Source of the DNA: a virus
DNA: 11,320 bases
UHGV virus genome: UHGV-0170512
Direction: 5' to 3' (one strand)
Shown here: positions 5,118 through 10,789 of the stretch, in pieces
Layout: every line of letters starts with the position of its first letter
Numbering within the stretch: the stretch's first letter is position 1
The notes under the pieces: model-generated
Database searches by the model: none
Seen by the model: only the letters and a program-made list of their open reading frames with translations
What the model was told of the DNA's origin: nothing
Program-made: the position numbers and the translations under genes

Positions 5118-5453
5118 ATGAAGTGGATTGTGATTGATACAGTTATCCAGCCATCATGCGGAATATCTTTTTCAGTCATATGGAGTAAAATAAAATTAAT
5201 AATCTGGTATCAATCGGATGCTTTCTTACCTCCTGAAAGTATATTTACACTGACTCACACAGGCATCATGCTCAATAACAAAGTGCTACCTGTAACCATT
5301 TACAACGTAGTACCATTCAATAAAACATTCTGGAATTTAATCAAAAACAGCCAGGAATGCCCTACAAATACAGATAACGTATTGAATGAATGCTTTAATA
5401 ACCGTTGCACTCTGCAAATATGTCCTTATGGACTAAAACAACAAAGTCCATAA
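5118..5453 (+). CDS. Hypothetical 111-aa protein, AT-rich convergent moron ORF
   Basis: Only credible plus-strand ORF in the window. Strong SD AAGGAA 7 nt upstream of the ATG at 5118, preceded by a ~250 bp very AT-rich stretch (4870-5117). Visibly lower GC than the phage backbone; 5 Cys; no recognisable family. Confidence 0.45.
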
Positions 5454-5487
5454 GGAGTTTACTCACATCTGACAAAATCAATATAAA

Positions 5488-5509
5488 CAGCCCCTCCGGA
5501 GAGGGGCTG
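5488..5509 (-). terminator. GC hairpin, likely Rho-independent terminator for minus-strand transcription (possibly also stops the convergent plus-strand ORF)
   Basis: CAGCCCCTC-CGGA-GAGGGGCTG, 9-bp perfect stem; on the minus strand it is followed by TTTATATTGATTTTG. On the plus strand it sits 35 nt after the 5118..5453 stop but has no U-tract. Confidence 0.4.
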
Positions 5510-5900
5510 GAGAGTGGCGCTATGTGCCATTGCATGGTGCCGGGTGCCTCCCGGTGAATTCAGTACCAGCACCTGAATCCGCGATTATCCCATATACCTA
5601 CTCGCTGATTGCCCCTCCGCACAGGGGGATTCACCATGCCAGTTTCTTTTAACAAACTCCCCGCAAACCAGACAACAGTCAACCGCCTGAATTGTGAAGT
5701 ATTTAAAAATTTCTCCCGCTAACTGATACCCGGCTAACAGTCTGGCGTTTTCTTTTTCAGCAACGGAAAAGCAACAACCACCACACCTGCCACCAGCACA
5801 CCGTCAGCCAGCACTGACATTATCCGGCTGCTGCAATGCCATTCACAAAAACAGTAAGCAATCACTTTTTACCGTAACAGGTGATAATCCAGATATGTAT

Positions 5901-6364: not shown

Positions 6365-6441
6365 TGGCGCGTTGTACTGGATTCGAACCACTGACCGATT
6401 GCTTAGAAGGCAATTGCTCTGTCCTGCTGAGCTAACAACGC
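6365..6441 (-). tRNA. tRNA-Arg (anticodon UCU)
   Basis: Minus strand GCGTTGTTAGCTCAGCAGGACAGAGCAATTGCCTTCTAAGCAATCGGTCAGTGGTTCGAATCCAGTACAACGCGCCA: 7-bp acceptor stem, D arm GCTC/GAGC, anticodon loop CTTCTAA, T loop TTCGAAT, encoded CCA. One G:G mismatch in the T stem. Confidence 0.8.
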
Positions 6442-6454
6442 AGAATACCGATAA

Positions 6455-6531
6455 TGGACCACCATCGGGGACCCGAACTCCGCGCAACCAGCTTCGAAAG
6501 CTGGCGCTCTTTCCTGATGAGCTAATGGCGG
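6455..6531 (-). tRNA. tRNA-Arg (anticodon UCG)
   Basis: Minus strand CCGCCATTAGCTCATCAGGAAAGAGCGCCAGCTTTCGAAGCTGGTTGCGCGGAGTTCGGGTCCCCGATGGTGGTCCA: acceptor stem with one G:U pair, perfect anticodon stem CCAGC/GCTGG, loop TTTCGAA, encoded CCA. Non-canonical T loop TTCGGGT (G at position 58) and one A:C mismatch in the T stem. Confidence 0.7.
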
Positions 6532-6538
6532 TATGTGA

Positions 6539-6614
6539 TGGTGGCCCTTGCTGGATTTGAACCAGCGACCTGGCGATTATGAGTCGCTCGCTCTCACCAC
6601 TGAGCTAAAGGGCC
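6539..6614 (-). tRNA. tRNA with CAU anticodon (Ile2-type, ileX-like, or Met)
   Basis: Minus strand GGCCCTTTAGCTCAGTGGTGAGAGCGAGCGACTCATAATCGCCAGGTCGCTGGTTCAAATCCAGCAAGGGCCACCA: perfect acceptor and T stems, anticodon loop CTCATAA; closely resembles the E. coli ileX tRNA as I recall it. Confidence 0.85.
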
Positions 6615-6736: not shown

Positions 6737-7456
6737 TTAACGAACTCTGACTACATTAATTTCAAAGTCATCAATCTGCCCGCTATTAAGTATAACGAAT
6801 GCAGAACTCCCATTACTGTACGATTTCGATAAAACCAGACGATCATCATAGCGTGCAAGAACGTAATACCAAGTATTCTCATAGTGGATCGTCTGATATT
6901 CCCTCTTAAACTGGGGTTTATACCAACCGGCAATAAGAGAGAATGTCCAGAAATAAATCATGAATCCAGCCATAATAAACTCAATTCGGTGATGGCGAAT
7001 AAAAGACACTTCCGAAAAACATTTGACTGAAATAAGTCTTCTTCCTGACCTGACAAAAAGCGTAATTGTAAAGGCAGCAATAACACAAAAAAACAGCACA
7101 TCTGGCTCAACGTGCTGATGAATTACCGAAAACTCCAGAACAGGCGGAATAAAAAGCAGCAATATTGCCAGAAAAAGTCTGATAAAACTCAAATTCTGTA
7201 TATTGTTTTTTTGTTTTATGCCTAAAAAGAAAACAATACCTACTCCCCATCCAGTAAGGAATATAACGATAACGCTCACAGCATAAAACAAACTTCGGGC
7301 CACATCATCAACGCCAACCCCGACGATCCACCATGGAAAGCCATAGTAAAAGGAAGTCCCCCATCCATAGAAATAAGCGCTTCCCCATCCAAGACAGCCC
7401 ATATAAGCAATAAAAAGTGAAGAGTTCCTCAGCAGAGTGCTGTCATCCATACCCAT
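6737..7456 (-). CDS. Uncharacterised polytopic membrane protein (about 5 predicted TM helices plus ~60-aa C-terminal soluble tail)
   Basis: 239-aa ORF, first gene after the tR'-like terminator. Successive hydrophobic, aromatic-rich segments (FIAYMGCLGWGSAYFYGWG..., LFYAVSVIVIFLTGWGVGIVFFLGI, FIRLFLAILLLFIPPVLEF, VLFFCVIAAFTITLFV, IMAGFMIYFWTFSLIAGWY). Visibly AT-rich. Likely start is the second ATG (7450), with GAGAG 6 nt upstream. Confidence 0.6.
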   Translation of the reverse strand: MGMDDSTLLRNSSLFIAYMGCLGWGSAYFYGWGTSFYYGFPWWIVGVGVDDVARSLFYAVSVIVIFLTGWGVGIVFFLGIKQKNNIQNLSFIRLFLAILLLFIPPVLEFSVIHQHVEPDVLFFCVIAAFTITLFVRSGRRLISVKCFSEVSFIRHHRIEFIMAGFMIYFWTFSLIAGWYKPQFKREYQTIHYENTWYYVLARYDDRLVLSKSYSNGSSAFVILNSGQIDDFEINVVRVR

Positions 7457-7591
7457 CTCTCTAACAATTTTAAAACATCAACTCATCTTACATAACAAAG
7501 GAGATTCCATGCAGTCAAGAGACTTCAGAGCAGGAGAAACTCATTGCGCAATCGCCATCACGTTTAACGTTATGCACCGCTTTCCAGATAT

Positions 7592-7616
7592 AAAAAACCC
7601 GCTCGATGGCGGGCTG
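7592..7616 (-). terminator. tR'-like Rho-independent terminator downstream of Q
   Basis: Minus strand AGCCCGC-CATCGA-GCGGG followed by TTTTTTATATC; about 80-100 nt downstream of the Q stop, as expected for the short pR' transcript of lambdoid phages. Confidence 0.55.
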
Positions 7617-7662
7617 TAAAAATCCTTCTAACGTCAGGCATAAAACGCCCATCGTTAGAGCA

Positions 7663-7690
7663 AATTTACCACAGATTCGGGAAAAATCAA
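7663..7690 (-). promoter_or_regulatory. Candidate late promoter pR' (with presumed qut region)
   Basis: Minus strand TTGATT-16 nt-TAAATT with TGG immediately upstream of the -10 (extended -10-like), directly after the Q stop codon (7696). Confidence 0.35.
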
Positions 7691-7695
7691 CAACA

Positions 7696-8517
7696 CTATC
7701 GCGTTACCCTCTTTAACTGCCGCTCCGCCCATGCCTCTTCAATGTCAAACCGAACCACCAACGTATCGTAAAAGCGTTTCACTGATTTTTTCCACGTATC
7801 AAGCGTGATAGCACTCGTCACTTTGCGTATGGCATTAAATGCCTCCGTTGATGGTAGTCTTTCATAGCCCCGACCGCCACAACGCTGGCAGTTCCTGATT
7901 ACAGGCATACCCCGTTTTTCCGACTCTTCACGATGAATGGCAACACCACGCCCACGGCAGTCTTTACAGGCAGTGGAAATCTCCCCCTTCCCTTTACATT
8001 CAGGACAAGAAACTTTCACCACCTCCCGGATTTTTTTCCATTCTTCCCAGTAAGACGGATACACACCTTTCGTACACTTTGCCCATACCGGCGGCTTACC
8101 ATCCGGATACTGGACCTTGTTTGTAAAAACTACGCTTTCAATAAATTTTTCCCCATAGCAACAAGGGCACTGCTTTTTACTCGCTGCGCTGCGGGCATAA
8201 TCCTCAAAAGCGTACGAAGCCATAATGCGCATCACTACCGGTTTTATTTCTGCCGGAAGTTTTCTTAACGCCGCCACGCGATCGCACTGACTTAATGCAT
8301 AATCTGCCAGTAATTCTGTTGCCCGCGCCCTGTCATTCATACTAATACCCATTTTCCCCAGGAACGCAGAAAATCCCATCTCAGCCCGGTTTTGTGTCAT
8401 ACCCTGCGCAGCCATCACATCAGTGATGCTCAGCGCATCTTTTGACGTCGAGACGGATGCATCAGTCAGGCCTGGCGATTTTGGGGAATAGTATTTCGGT
8501 AAATCTTCCAGTCTCAT
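7696..8517 (-). CDS. Q-like late antiterminator (QuuQ-type, zinc-finger Cys pairs)
   Basis: 273-aa ORF with several CxxC pairs (CPCC, CPEC, CKDC, CQRC); positioned after rusA and before a promoter-terminator pair and the lysis genes, the canonical Q position. ATG overlaps the rusA stop (ATGA). Confidence 0.6.
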   Translation of the reverse strand: MRLEDLPKYYSPKSPGLTDASVSTSKDALSITDVMAAQGMTQNRAEMGFSAFLGKMGISMNDRARATELLADYALSQCDRVAALRKLPAEIKPVVMRIMASYAFEDYARSAASKKQCPCCYGEKFIESVVFTNKVQYPDGKPPVWAKCTKGVYPSYWEEWKKIREVVKVSCPECKGKGEISTACKDCRGRGVAIHREESEKRGMPVIRNCQRCGGRGYERLPSTEAFNAIRKVTSAITLDTWKKSVKRFYDTLVVRFDIEEAWAERQLKRVTR

Positions 8518-8888
8518 TTTTGGACCTGCCCGTCATGCATTATTTCGTAAATCTTCACGCCCAACCGACCACCAGGAACGAGCTGACCGCGCACAATATT
8601 GATTTCATCAAACTGCTCGTCGTCTATAAGTAGTCCGGCATGCGTCAGCGCATCCAGTGGTGCTTTCAGGATATTGTCCAGGTCACGACGGCGCTTATCC
8701 GGTGGCTCTGCAATCACCTTTATCGCCAGCCTTCCGGACAGGCTTAATTTCAGCTGCTGCTGGCGAACAATAAGCGCCACAGCCCGGCGATAACGCTTTC
8801 CCTCCTCCGAGATAAAATATGTGCTGCCACGGCGTCGCCAGTAAGTGTTCACCGTCGGCGGGTAAGGTAAAACCAAATCTATGAGCAT
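8514..8888 (-). CDS. rusA: RusA Holliday-junction resolvase
   Basis: 124 aa; PPTVNTYWRR... and DKRRRDLDNILKAPLDALTHAGLLIDDEQ parallel E. coli RusA (PPSNNRYYRH..., [30 protein letters not shown]). Strong SD (AGAGGTGA) upstream. Confidence 0.85.
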   Translation of the reverse strand: MLIDLVLPYPPTVNTYWRRRGSTYFISEEGKRYRRAVALIVRQQQLKLSLSGRLAIKVIAEPPDKRRRDLDNILKAPLDALTHAGLLIDDEQFDEINIVRGQLVPGGRLGVKIYEIMHDGQVQK

Positions 8889-10397: not shown

Positions 10398-10553
10398 TTA
10401 CTCCTCAGGTTCGTAAGCTGTGAAGACAGCGACCTCCGTCTGGCCGGTTCGGATTCGTACCTCGCAGAGGTCTTTCCTCGTTACCAGTGCCGTCACTATG
10501 ACGGTTAAACAGATGACGATCAGGGCGATTAACATCGCCTTTTGCTGCTTCAT
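10398..10553 (-). CDS. hok: Hok-family type I toxin (HokD/RelF-like), 51 aa
   Basis: Hand-translated, below the ORF-track size cutoff: MKQQKAMLIALIVICLTVIVTALVTRKDLCEVRIRTGQTEVAVFTAYEPEE. Single TM segment and Hok/Gef signature; SD AGGAGAAG 6 nt upstream of the ATG. Confidence 0.85.
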   Translation of the reverse strand: MKQQKAMLIALIVICLTVIVTALVTRKDLCEVRIRTGQTEVAVFTAYEPEE

Positions 10554-10789
10554 AGCCTGCTTCTCCTTGACCTTTCGGTCCGTAAGAGGCTAATCTCTAT
10601 GTGTCGCATAGATATGGCCTCAGATTAATGTTAAGCGTCTTGCAGGACGCGTAATGTTAACTGGGGCTTTTCTCTATCTGCCTTTTGGTGTTCATGCCTG
10701 AGGCAGATAGCCTCAAGCACCCGCAGCAATTCTACTTAACTCACGTCACCTCGCCAATATGAAATCAATCAGAAAGGTGATCCATAAAA

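Follow-up and report, generated by a model that had tools for sequence, protein, structure and literature searches.

The minus-strand segment 7590-7695 of the window (the whole 11,320-nt stretch of viral DNA analysed here, UHGV-0170512) very likely serves a lambdoid prophage with a lambda-family Q as its late-gene control cassette; the opposite strand carries a 36-codon ORF, which is very likely there by chance. Judged from its sequence, the cassette is an ordinary lambda-style late switch, a system of an already-known kind. Its homology, positions and conservation patterns were observed as described below. The first-pass annotation had proposed a pR'/tR'-like module behind Q, a proposal that the conservation data and the homology with lambda pR' support well. 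The promoter-like element and the terminator that it placed between Q and the next gene were both found, on the minus strand.

Q gene and pR' promoter

The features at the upstream side of the cassette were as follows.

7696..8517, minus strand: gene for a 273-aa Q antiterminator of the lambda-Q family (Pfam PF03589, E=4.9e-52)
within 7696..8517, minus strand: zinc-ribbon arm of Q, an insertion of ~66 aa (alignment to lambda Q)
7685..7690, minus strand: pR' -35 hexamer TTGATT, invariant in 44 unique homologs and part of the top position-weight (PWM) match
7669..7684, minus strand: 16-bp pR' spacer TTTCCCGAATCTGTGG, candidate Q-binding element (QBE), near-invariant across homologs
7663..7668, minus strand: pR' -10 hexamer TAAATT, which lambda pR' shares, here preceded by TGg and belonging to the top PWM match
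7651..7656, minus strand: AACGAT, sigma-dependent pause element at +1..+6, with 7656 as the predicted +1 (homology to lambda and K-12 Qin)

The immediate upstream neighbour of the cassette was a Q gene of PF03589, which RefSeq labels as antitermination protein. The PDB matches of its product included the lambda Q structure 7ubm (E=8e-41) and 4mo1, and the identity with lambda Q was 30%, with an alignment gap of 68 residues. PMC9388147 defines the Q families as PF03589 for lambda, PF06323 for phage 82 and PF06530 for phage 21. A cassette of the phage 82/21 type was ruled out because Q belongs to the lambda family. The proper comparators for the Q module appear to be lambda and K-12 Qin (ydfT/quuQ) rather than phages 82, 21 or 933W, all three put forward earlier; phages 82 and 21 carry Q proteins of the other two families.

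The pR' sequence TTGATT-16-TGgTAAATT starts 6 nt past the Q stop codon. The strict promoter scan of the region gave no minus-strand pR' call, because TTGATT/TAAATT fits the consensus at only 8/12 positions. The PWM scan, a rough one with approximate base frequencies, compared 126 window segments, each of 350 nt (background: median 7.2, 90th percentile 10.3), and TTGATT-16-TAAATT with its upstream TG scored 13.2, the top of all segments. Since a global MAFFT alignment of lambda and the window was misaligned, anchored comparisons were used instead. From GGTAAATT through AACGATGGG, the promoter and pause element matched lambda without gaps at 19/23 positions, in agreement with a three-way alignment of the window, K-12 Qin and lambda. 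AACGAT matched lambda and K-12 Qin in sequence and in distance from the -10 hexamer (anchored and three-way comparisons), and its variants among homologs retained xAxxAT (A2, A5, T6). Pausing at lambda pR' is established, and by analogy a pause is predicted at +16/+17 (7641/7640). The lambda QBE sits between -35 and -10, as does the candidate element here; the pR' spacer was near-invariant among homologs, though unlike the lambda spacer in the anchored comparison. Q may bind to this conserved spacer at 7669..7684.

The conservation profile of the Q module fits the promoter-pause-terminator reading. Conservation set in exactly at the -35 hexamer (44 unique homologs). Among 53 unique homologous Q modules, the -35..-10 block showed a pairwise identity of 97.7% with 22/28 columns invariant, compared to 81% at Q third codon positions. 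In the same set, the identity was 67% in the spacer between -10 and +1, 90% in the pause element, 92.9% at leader positions +7..+35 (again versus 81% at Q third codon positions), 89%/99% in the two tR' stem arms versus 66% in the loop, and 59% downstream of tR'. The module was present in 2810/5426 complete E. coli genomes, about half.

Predicted leader RNA and tR' terminator

Two further features completed the cassette.

7590..7656, minus strand: predicted short pR' leader RNA, ~62-67 nt (fold and conservation)
7590..7615, minus strand: tR' intrinsic terminator with a 7-bp stem, a 6-nt loop and T6 (terminator scan)

The tR' terminator stands between pR' and the downstream genes. Its sequence is AGCCCGC-CATCGA-GCGGGTT followed by TTTTTT at 7615-7590, with the hairpin itself at 7596-7615 (-11.2 kcal/mol). 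The hairpin was kept across homologs despite altered stems, and behind unrelated Q modules (L061 and L067) a hairpin and T-tract persisted with different stem sequences. The scan of the region gave two terminator-like sites against 0.4 expected; the other one, at 7662-7646, was regarded as a chance match, as it has only 5 pairs and overlaps the +1 and the pause element. Together, promoter, pause element and terminator predict a leader RNA of ~65 nt. Its predicted fold (-22.3 kcal/mol, z=-3.2) consists of a 5' hairpin at 7656-7630, a single-stranded AGAAGGAUUUUUACA and then the terminator.

Cargo gene

6737..7450, minus strand: predicted membrane protein, 237 aa, cargo/moron gene (phrog_1521, unassigned function)

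The gene following tR' had been taken as the first late gene. It is instead a cargo gene, with tRNA genes between it and the lysis genes. Its true start is ATG 7450, which all homologs share and RefSeq also uses; ATG 7456 is confined to the clade of the window. Searches of the 237-aa protein against Pfam and NCBIfam gave no match, and only a weak AbiC match (E=0.0037) was found. Phage matches to the Q module ended at the tR' terminator, the Q-pR'-tR' module preceded at least six different downstream sequences in other prophages, and the cargo gene was also found behind unrelated pR' regions. The gene is thus present or absent among phages that share the flanking modules, as a moron is. In the window, the stretch from 6737 to the first tRNA gene gave no terminator-like site; in the relatives L017, L031 and L035, the cargo gene has a terminator copy of its own behind it.

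Opposite-strand ORF, conserved block and alternative readings

The ORF and the block that overlaps its beginning comprised the following elements.

7509..7619, plus strand: 36-codon ORF MQSRDFRAGETHCAIAITFNVMHRFPDIKNPLDGGL, ATG 7509 and TAA 7617-7619, judged non-coding
7497-7503, plus strand: SD-like AAAGGAG before the ORF, 5 nt from the ATG
7489..7518, minus strand: putative own promoter of the cargo gene (conservation of TTGAC-N18-TGnTATGNN)
7518-7513, 7497-7496 and 7494-7489, minus strand: TTGACT, TG and TATGTA, parts of the putative cargo promoter, with a variable spacer of 18 bp

The ORF has a start codon and a ribosome-binding site. The AAAGGAG pointed out in the first-pass annotation is present, but the spacer is 5 nt (ATTCC) instead of 7 nt, which is still good. 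Similarly, the last codons do cross the hairpin at 7596-7615, but the stop codon lies 2 nt past the stem and not inside it. Among the 125 window ORFs of at least 30 aa, two ATG-ORFs had a 6-nt SD core (this ORF and hokD), compared to 0.185 expected per shuffled window. The combination of SD and ORF at 7509 is mildly unusual, not compelling. Three other ORFs were rejected, none with a family match: a minus-strand 45-aa ORF (7515-7652), which starts at +5 of the leader without an SD and crosses the terminator; plus-strand 7437-7619, which shares the frame of the ORF at 7509-7619; and plus-strand 7606-7716.

The first-pass annotation had left open whether the ORF was coincidental or encoded a small antisense peptide. 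A real, young, clade-specific small protein made from an antisense transcript seems to us very improbable, even though its strong SD so close to the ATG is seldom met in shuffled windows and most near-identical copies in the window's clade keep the frame open, with its SD. There is also a precedent in K-12 Qin, where the small protein YnfS (29 aa), encoded opposite Q in the equivalent intergenic region, has been validated (PMC6001520). On comparison, however, the ORF had no homology to YnfS, which goes with the co-directional cspF cargo. Conservation of the ORF had been named as a check, and the frame was not preserved among 51 unique homologous leaders. At least 10 lineages had TAG at codon 2 or had lost the start, among them L055, which loses the frame yet retains the same SD. 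The C-terminal frame varied with the length of the T-tract, giving 25, 27, 36 or >67 aa, and even L014, a 97.6% identical copy, was already frame-shifted there. The AAAGGAG itself was limited to the window's own clade. The substitutions compared to L017 numbered 8/11/9 at codon positions 1/2/3 and the mean column entropies were 0.77/0.83/0.69, so neither showed a third-position bias indicative of purifying selection on the peptide; at the amino-acid level the identity was 47% (17/36, a hand count from translations). The ORF body (7520-7589) was ~60% identical, less conserved than the synonymous sites of the neighbouring gene (81% at CDS third positions). As for expression signals on the plus strand, the strict scan gave no promoter match for the ORF and the best relaxed score was 6.1, under the window median of 7.2; no terminator was found, as the hairpin there leads into CTGTAAAAAT and not into a T run. 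The ORF had no Pfam match and no RefSeq annotation. The frame loss, the substitution pattern and the lack of a promoter-like site all favour coincidence, and the ORF at 7509-7619 is best read as a chance open frame, not a gene.

The block at 7489-7518 was the one strongly conserved stretch past tR' in the 130 nt before the cargo gene, with 86% identity versus 60% in its flanks, and it is probably the cargo gene's own promoter. Across 19 clade representatives whose protein identity went as low as 57%, TTGAC and TTTGT.A.G were (near-)invariant and the sequence between them was variable. Both the SD of the plus-strand ORF and its ATG fall within this variable spacer. Two invariant blocks with a free 18-bp spacer are a classic promoter signature; moreover, TTGACT fits the consensus at 5/6 positions, and TG stands at -15/-14. 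It is rather unlikely that the block, with its TTTGTTATG end, is no promoter but is bound by a regulator or acts in the late transcript as an RNA element. Consistent with such a role, TATGTA is a poor -10 hexamer: no homolog has T at position -7, where all have A or G, and with just 8.4 the PWM score did not rise above the background (median 7.2). The TTTGT directly upstream of the hexamer was also more invariant than a usual promoter spacer, and TGTT(A/T), read by eye, was repeated at conserved 5' UTR positions, with TGTTA-like repeats at about 0, 20 and 31 nt that resemble the direct repeats of response regulators. RNAalifold, in contrast, gave no conserved structure (-0.13 kcal/mol, essentially without covariation, for the leader at 7439-7592), and a structured RNA was rejected. 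For the pR' leader, a further role would be compatible with the late-switch reading. In Stx phages, pR' is constitutive and its transcripts are terminated at tR' in lysogens, which yields the short RNA StxS (PMC7547250). The ~65-nt RNA at 7656-7590 could likewise be a constitutive trans-acting prophage sRNA, with the conserved +7..+35 serving as a seed beyond the pause and loading signal. The conservation of this stretch above Q third codon positions, the sRNA-like predicted shape (5' hairpin, A/U-rich single strand and U6 terminator) and the presence of the module in about half of the complete E. coli genomes, K-12 Qin included, agree with this possibility. We nevertheless consider it unlikely: conservation of the early-transcribed part is equally explained by the needs of pausing and Q loading, the 5' hairpin had no covariation support, its variants being single-sided, and the Rfam scan of the region gave nothing at the gathering threshold. 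Sub-threshold matches to the Trp and Phe leaders (E=0.097 and 3) were rejected as reflecting a generic leader-plus-terminator shape.

Proposed mechanism and meaning

For the late switch, we infer the following course, from initiation through pausing, Q binding and read-through to the activity of a second promoter. Sigma-70 RNA polymerase would initiate at pR', with +1 near 7656, and sigma region 2 would rebind the -10-like AACGAT at +1..+6, causing the polymerase to pause near +16/+17. Without Q, transcription would terminate at the hairpin and U-tract (7615-7590) to leave the ~65-nt RNA. Once made, Q would bind within the promoter, at the conserved -35/-10 spacer, and load onto the paused complex, and the Q-loaded polymerase would pass tR' and transcribe the cargo, tRNA and lysis genes. 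In the lysogen, the cargo gene may be expressed from its own putative promoter at 7489-7518.

The import of these results is modest and lies mainly in better annotation. They locate pR', the pause element and tR', unannotated in database records, in a very common QuuQ-type Q module, and indicate that the downstream cargo gene probably has its own promoter. They also remove a false small-ORF call, illustrating that a perfect SD and ATG can arise in a promoter spacer, with the frame crossing a terminator. If the leader were a regulatory sRNA, this would be moderately interesting given the wide distribution of the module in E. coli.

Comparison with known systems

The cassette resembles that of lambda in having a Q of the same Pfam family, the -10 hexamer TAAATT followed after 6 nt by AACGATGGG at the same spacing, and an intrinsic terminator ahead of the late genes. 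The lambda 6S RNA is 194 nt long, as opposed to ~65 nt for the predicted leader here, and in lambda the T-tract is found 218 nt past the -35. Further differences are the length of Q (273 aa with its ~66-aa zinc-ribbon insertion, compared to 207 aa in lambda, at 30% identity), a promoter spacer (the candidate QBE) of 16 bp instead of 17 bp and of different sequence, and the cargo and tRNA genes that separate tR' from the holin gene in the window. Unlike typical lambdoid morons, the cargo gene is not followed by a terminator in the window and its promoter is putative; like them, it is missing from related phages with the same flanking Q module, has a conserved promoter-like block upstream and is accompanied by its own terminator copy in relatives. 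The predicted short-RNA architecture from pR' to tR' is like that of StxS.

K-12 Qin differs from the window in the -35 hexamer and the promoter spacer and in its cargo, which is cspF/ynfS/cspB instead of a 237-aa membrane protein, and its YnfS is unrelated to the plus-strand ORF. The two nevertheless share a homologous gene order hokD - ydfU - Q, a homologous pR'-leader-tR' (TAAAAT-6-AACGATGGGC...GACGTTA...AACCCGC..GAGCGGGTTTT in Qin) and the cargo insertion site after tR'.

Locus and Q protein

In the window, the early region of a lambdoid prophage meets the late region; the prophage is present in extraintestinal pathogenic E. coli at 99.5% identity (e.g., IHE3034 and UPEC 26-1). The minus strand carries every gene near the intergenic region under study.

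Features around the intergenic region
8514-8888 (-), RusA
7696-8517 (-), antitermination protein Q, 273 aa
7451-7695, intergenic region under study
7615-7596 (stem) and 7595-7590 (T6) (-), terminator tR', from the terminator scan
6737-7450 (-), hypothetical protein of 237 aa (the cargo gene)
6365-6614 (-), three tRNA genes (Arg-tct, Arg-tcg and a CAT-anticodon tRNA)
beyond the tRNA genes (-), holin and lysis genes

The CAT-anticodon tRNA was called Met by ARAGORN, and the corresponding IHE3034 gene is annotated as Ile in RefSeq. Rfam matches were also found for the STnc100 sRNA (132 bits, 5479-5668, -), close to the lysis genes, and for the sok antitoxin RNA (108 bits, 10551-10722, -), which adjoins hokD.

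Q matched Pfam PF03589 as well as the lambda Q structures 7ubm and 4mo1 (E=8e-41), and by sequence it is a lambda-Q family member, sharing 30% identity with lambda Q and carrying an insertion of ~66 aa in the zinc-ribbon arm. The first-pass annotation had proposed phages 82 and 21 as comparators. PMC9388147 sorts Q proteins into three families, in which PF06530 corresponds to Q21, PF03589 to Q-lambda and PF06323 to Q82, and therefore lambda is the proper comparator rather than 82 or 21. The insertion (residues ~114-182) adds CxxC motifs relative to lambda Q, which account for sub-threshold matches of Q to DnaJ CXXCXGXG and anti-TRAP. Enlargement of the DNA-contacting arm is consistent with a different Q-binding element.

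Predicted promoter, leader and terminator downstream of Q

A strict promoter scan of the region gave no match. In a relaxed position-weight (PWM) scan, with approximate base frequencies, TTGATT-16-TGgTAAATT at 7690-7663 (-) ranked top of all 126 window segments. Comparison with the lambda late promoter pR' showed 19 identical bases over 23 ungapped positions, GGTAAATT through AACGATGGG; the two share the -10 TAAATT, a distance of 6 nt from -10 to +1, and a -10-like pause element, AACGAT, at +1..+6. For the RNA predicted from 7656-7590, the fold (-22.3 kcal/mol, z=-3.2) starts with a hairpin at the 5' end, continues as an A/U-rich single strand and closes with the terminator.

Conservation was evaluated as mean pairwise identity per segment, using 53 unique sequences from 80 loci encoding relatives of Q.

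Conservation of the Q-pR'-tR' module
Q third codon positions, 81%
8 nt from the Q stop to -35, 71%
-35 through -10 including the spacer, 97.7% (22/28 invariant)
6 nt from -10 to +1, 67%
Pause element, 90%
+7..+35, 93%
Terminator arms, 89% and 99%
Terminator loop, 66%
30 nt after the terminator, 59%

Variation in the pause element was limited to non-critical positions, with xAxxAT retained. Such a profile is as expected for a promoter, a putative Q-binding spacer, a pause element and a terminator. The promoter-like element and terminator noted at first pass are thus borne out by the terminator scan, the best PWM score, the lambda pR' homology and the conservation profile; with the Q family corrected, the sequence comparisons support a pR'/tR' interpretation. 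Between window 7590-7602 (the tR' T-tract and following bases, TTTTTTATATCTG) and lambda tR' (44770-44786), 13 nt are identical, perhaps left over from shared descent, perhaps by chance; the tR' stems differ.

The opposite-strand reading frame

On the plus strand, a 36-codon frame runs from ATG 7509 to TAA 7617-7619, and its translation is the peptide quoted in the first-pass annotation, which had considered it a possible small antisense-encoded product. The AAAGGAG described there is present (7497-7503), but it stands 5 nt from the ATG instead of 7, and the stop codon lies 2 nt past the hairpin rather than inside it. A shuffled window is expected to hold 0.185 ATG-initiated frames that reach 30 aa or more and follow a 6-nt SD core, so the combination is mildly unusual and far from decisive.

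We compared 51 unique leaders from genes homologous to the one for the 237-aa protein (57-100% identical as proteins). Region 7457-7613 is kept there at ~75% identity, and the pR' region preceding it is mostly a different one. TAG occurred at codon 2 in 8 unique leaders (L028, which also stands for L002; L055, L057, L060, L061, L062, L063 and L067), and the start codon was lost (ATT, ATA or ACA) in L003, L058, L035 and L039. Length variation in the terminator T-tract placed the C-terminus at 25, 27, 36 or >67 aa, and shifted it even in L014, a copy 97.6% identical. GGAG was found only in the window's own clade and in L055, where the frame reads M-stop. Substitutions relative to the L017 clade numbered 8/11/9 at codon positions 1/2/3, with no third-position bias, and the body of the frame (7520-7589) was 60% identical, compared to 81% at third positions of the adjacent gene. 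Neither the strict nor the relaxed scan found a plus-strand promoter-like site above background, read in the plus direction the hairpin does not form a terminator, and RefSeq annotates no feature at the frame. Since the frame is not preserved in relatives, the outcome is the one that the first-pass annotation itself had named as refuting, and at the sequence level an antisense peptide is not supported.

A conserved block upstream of the cargo gene

The leader contains a single strongly conserved block, 7518-7489, which reads CTTGAC(T/G)-variable 18 nt-TTTGT(T/A)A(T/C/A)G in gene sense (86% identity vs 60% in the flanks). In promoter terms, TTGACT is followed across an 18-bp spacer by TATGTA, with TG at -15/-14, and the -10 region resembles the gal P2 extended -10 (TTTGTTATGCT). 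We read the block as the cargo gene's own putative promoter; its PWM score of 8.4 is unremarkable, and position -7 is never T among homologs. The variable spacer holds the SD (CTCC, gene sense) and ATG (CAT) of the plus-strand frame. RNAalifold found no conserved RNA structure in 7439-7592. TGTT(A/T) motifs, conserved across homologs, repeat at about 0, 20 and 31 nt (TTTGTTATG, GATGTTTT, ATTGTTAGAG) within 7451-7500 (-); this spacing, near multiples of a helical turn, recalls direct-repeat response-regulator sites.

The cargo gene starts at ATG 7450, which is conserved everywhere, and not at ATG 7456, which is clade-specific. L074/L005-type homologs (57% protein identity) have a conserved ATG inside TTGTTATGAG, some 40 nt ahead of the annotated start, in frame without an intervening stop, and thus a 14-codon N-terminal extension is possible there; the equivalent ATG in the window is followed immediately by TAA. 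The cargo protein is hydrophobic, apparently with several transmembrane segments (by eye) and a C-terminal soluble part. It was assigned to phrog_1521, a group of unknown function; searches of Pfam and NCBIfam gave no family, and AbiC was only a weak match (E=0.0037). A role in lysogenic conversion or exclusion is possible.

Among other prophages, the Q-pR'-tR' module precedes at least six unrelated downstream sequences, so the site directly after tR' is a cargo-insertion site. Many relatives (such as L017, L031 and L035, each at 2712-2830) carry, directly after the 237-aa gene, a second tR' copy of the QuuQ type, i.e., of the lambda-family module as in K-12 Qin. Set against window 7540-7630, this copy takes in the AGAAGATTTTTAC portion of the QuuQ-type leader and ~40 nt further, so that in such relatives terminator repeats stand on both sides of the cargo gene. 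The arrangement suggests that tR' is a recombination junction for cargo exchange. The downstream copy is absent from the window.

Comparison with known systems

In Stx phages, pR' is constitutive and its transcription ends at tR' in lysogens, resulting in the sRNA StxS (PMC7547250). K-12 Qin has a homologous, unannotated pR'-leader-tR' downstream of ydfT.

K-12 Qin sites on L169 (K-12 MG1655 1637000-1647000)
5123-5212 (+) and 5340-5489, pR'-leader-tR' and YnfS

In the equivalent intergenic region, next to cspF, the opposite strand encodes YnfS, a validated protein of 29 aa (PMC6001520). YnfS goes with the cspF cargo; the plus-strand frame of the window is unrelated to it. The Qin sequence downstream of ydfT/quuQ can be aligned with the window across the entire promoter-leader-terminator. 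The sequence features of a lambda-type cassette (a PF03589 Q gene, a promoter, a pause element and a terminator) are present, with the promoter spacer as the candidate Q-binding element, and the cassette is predicted to resemble lambda Q/pR'/tR' in its working. Such cassettes are well known, and the one in the window adds another example.
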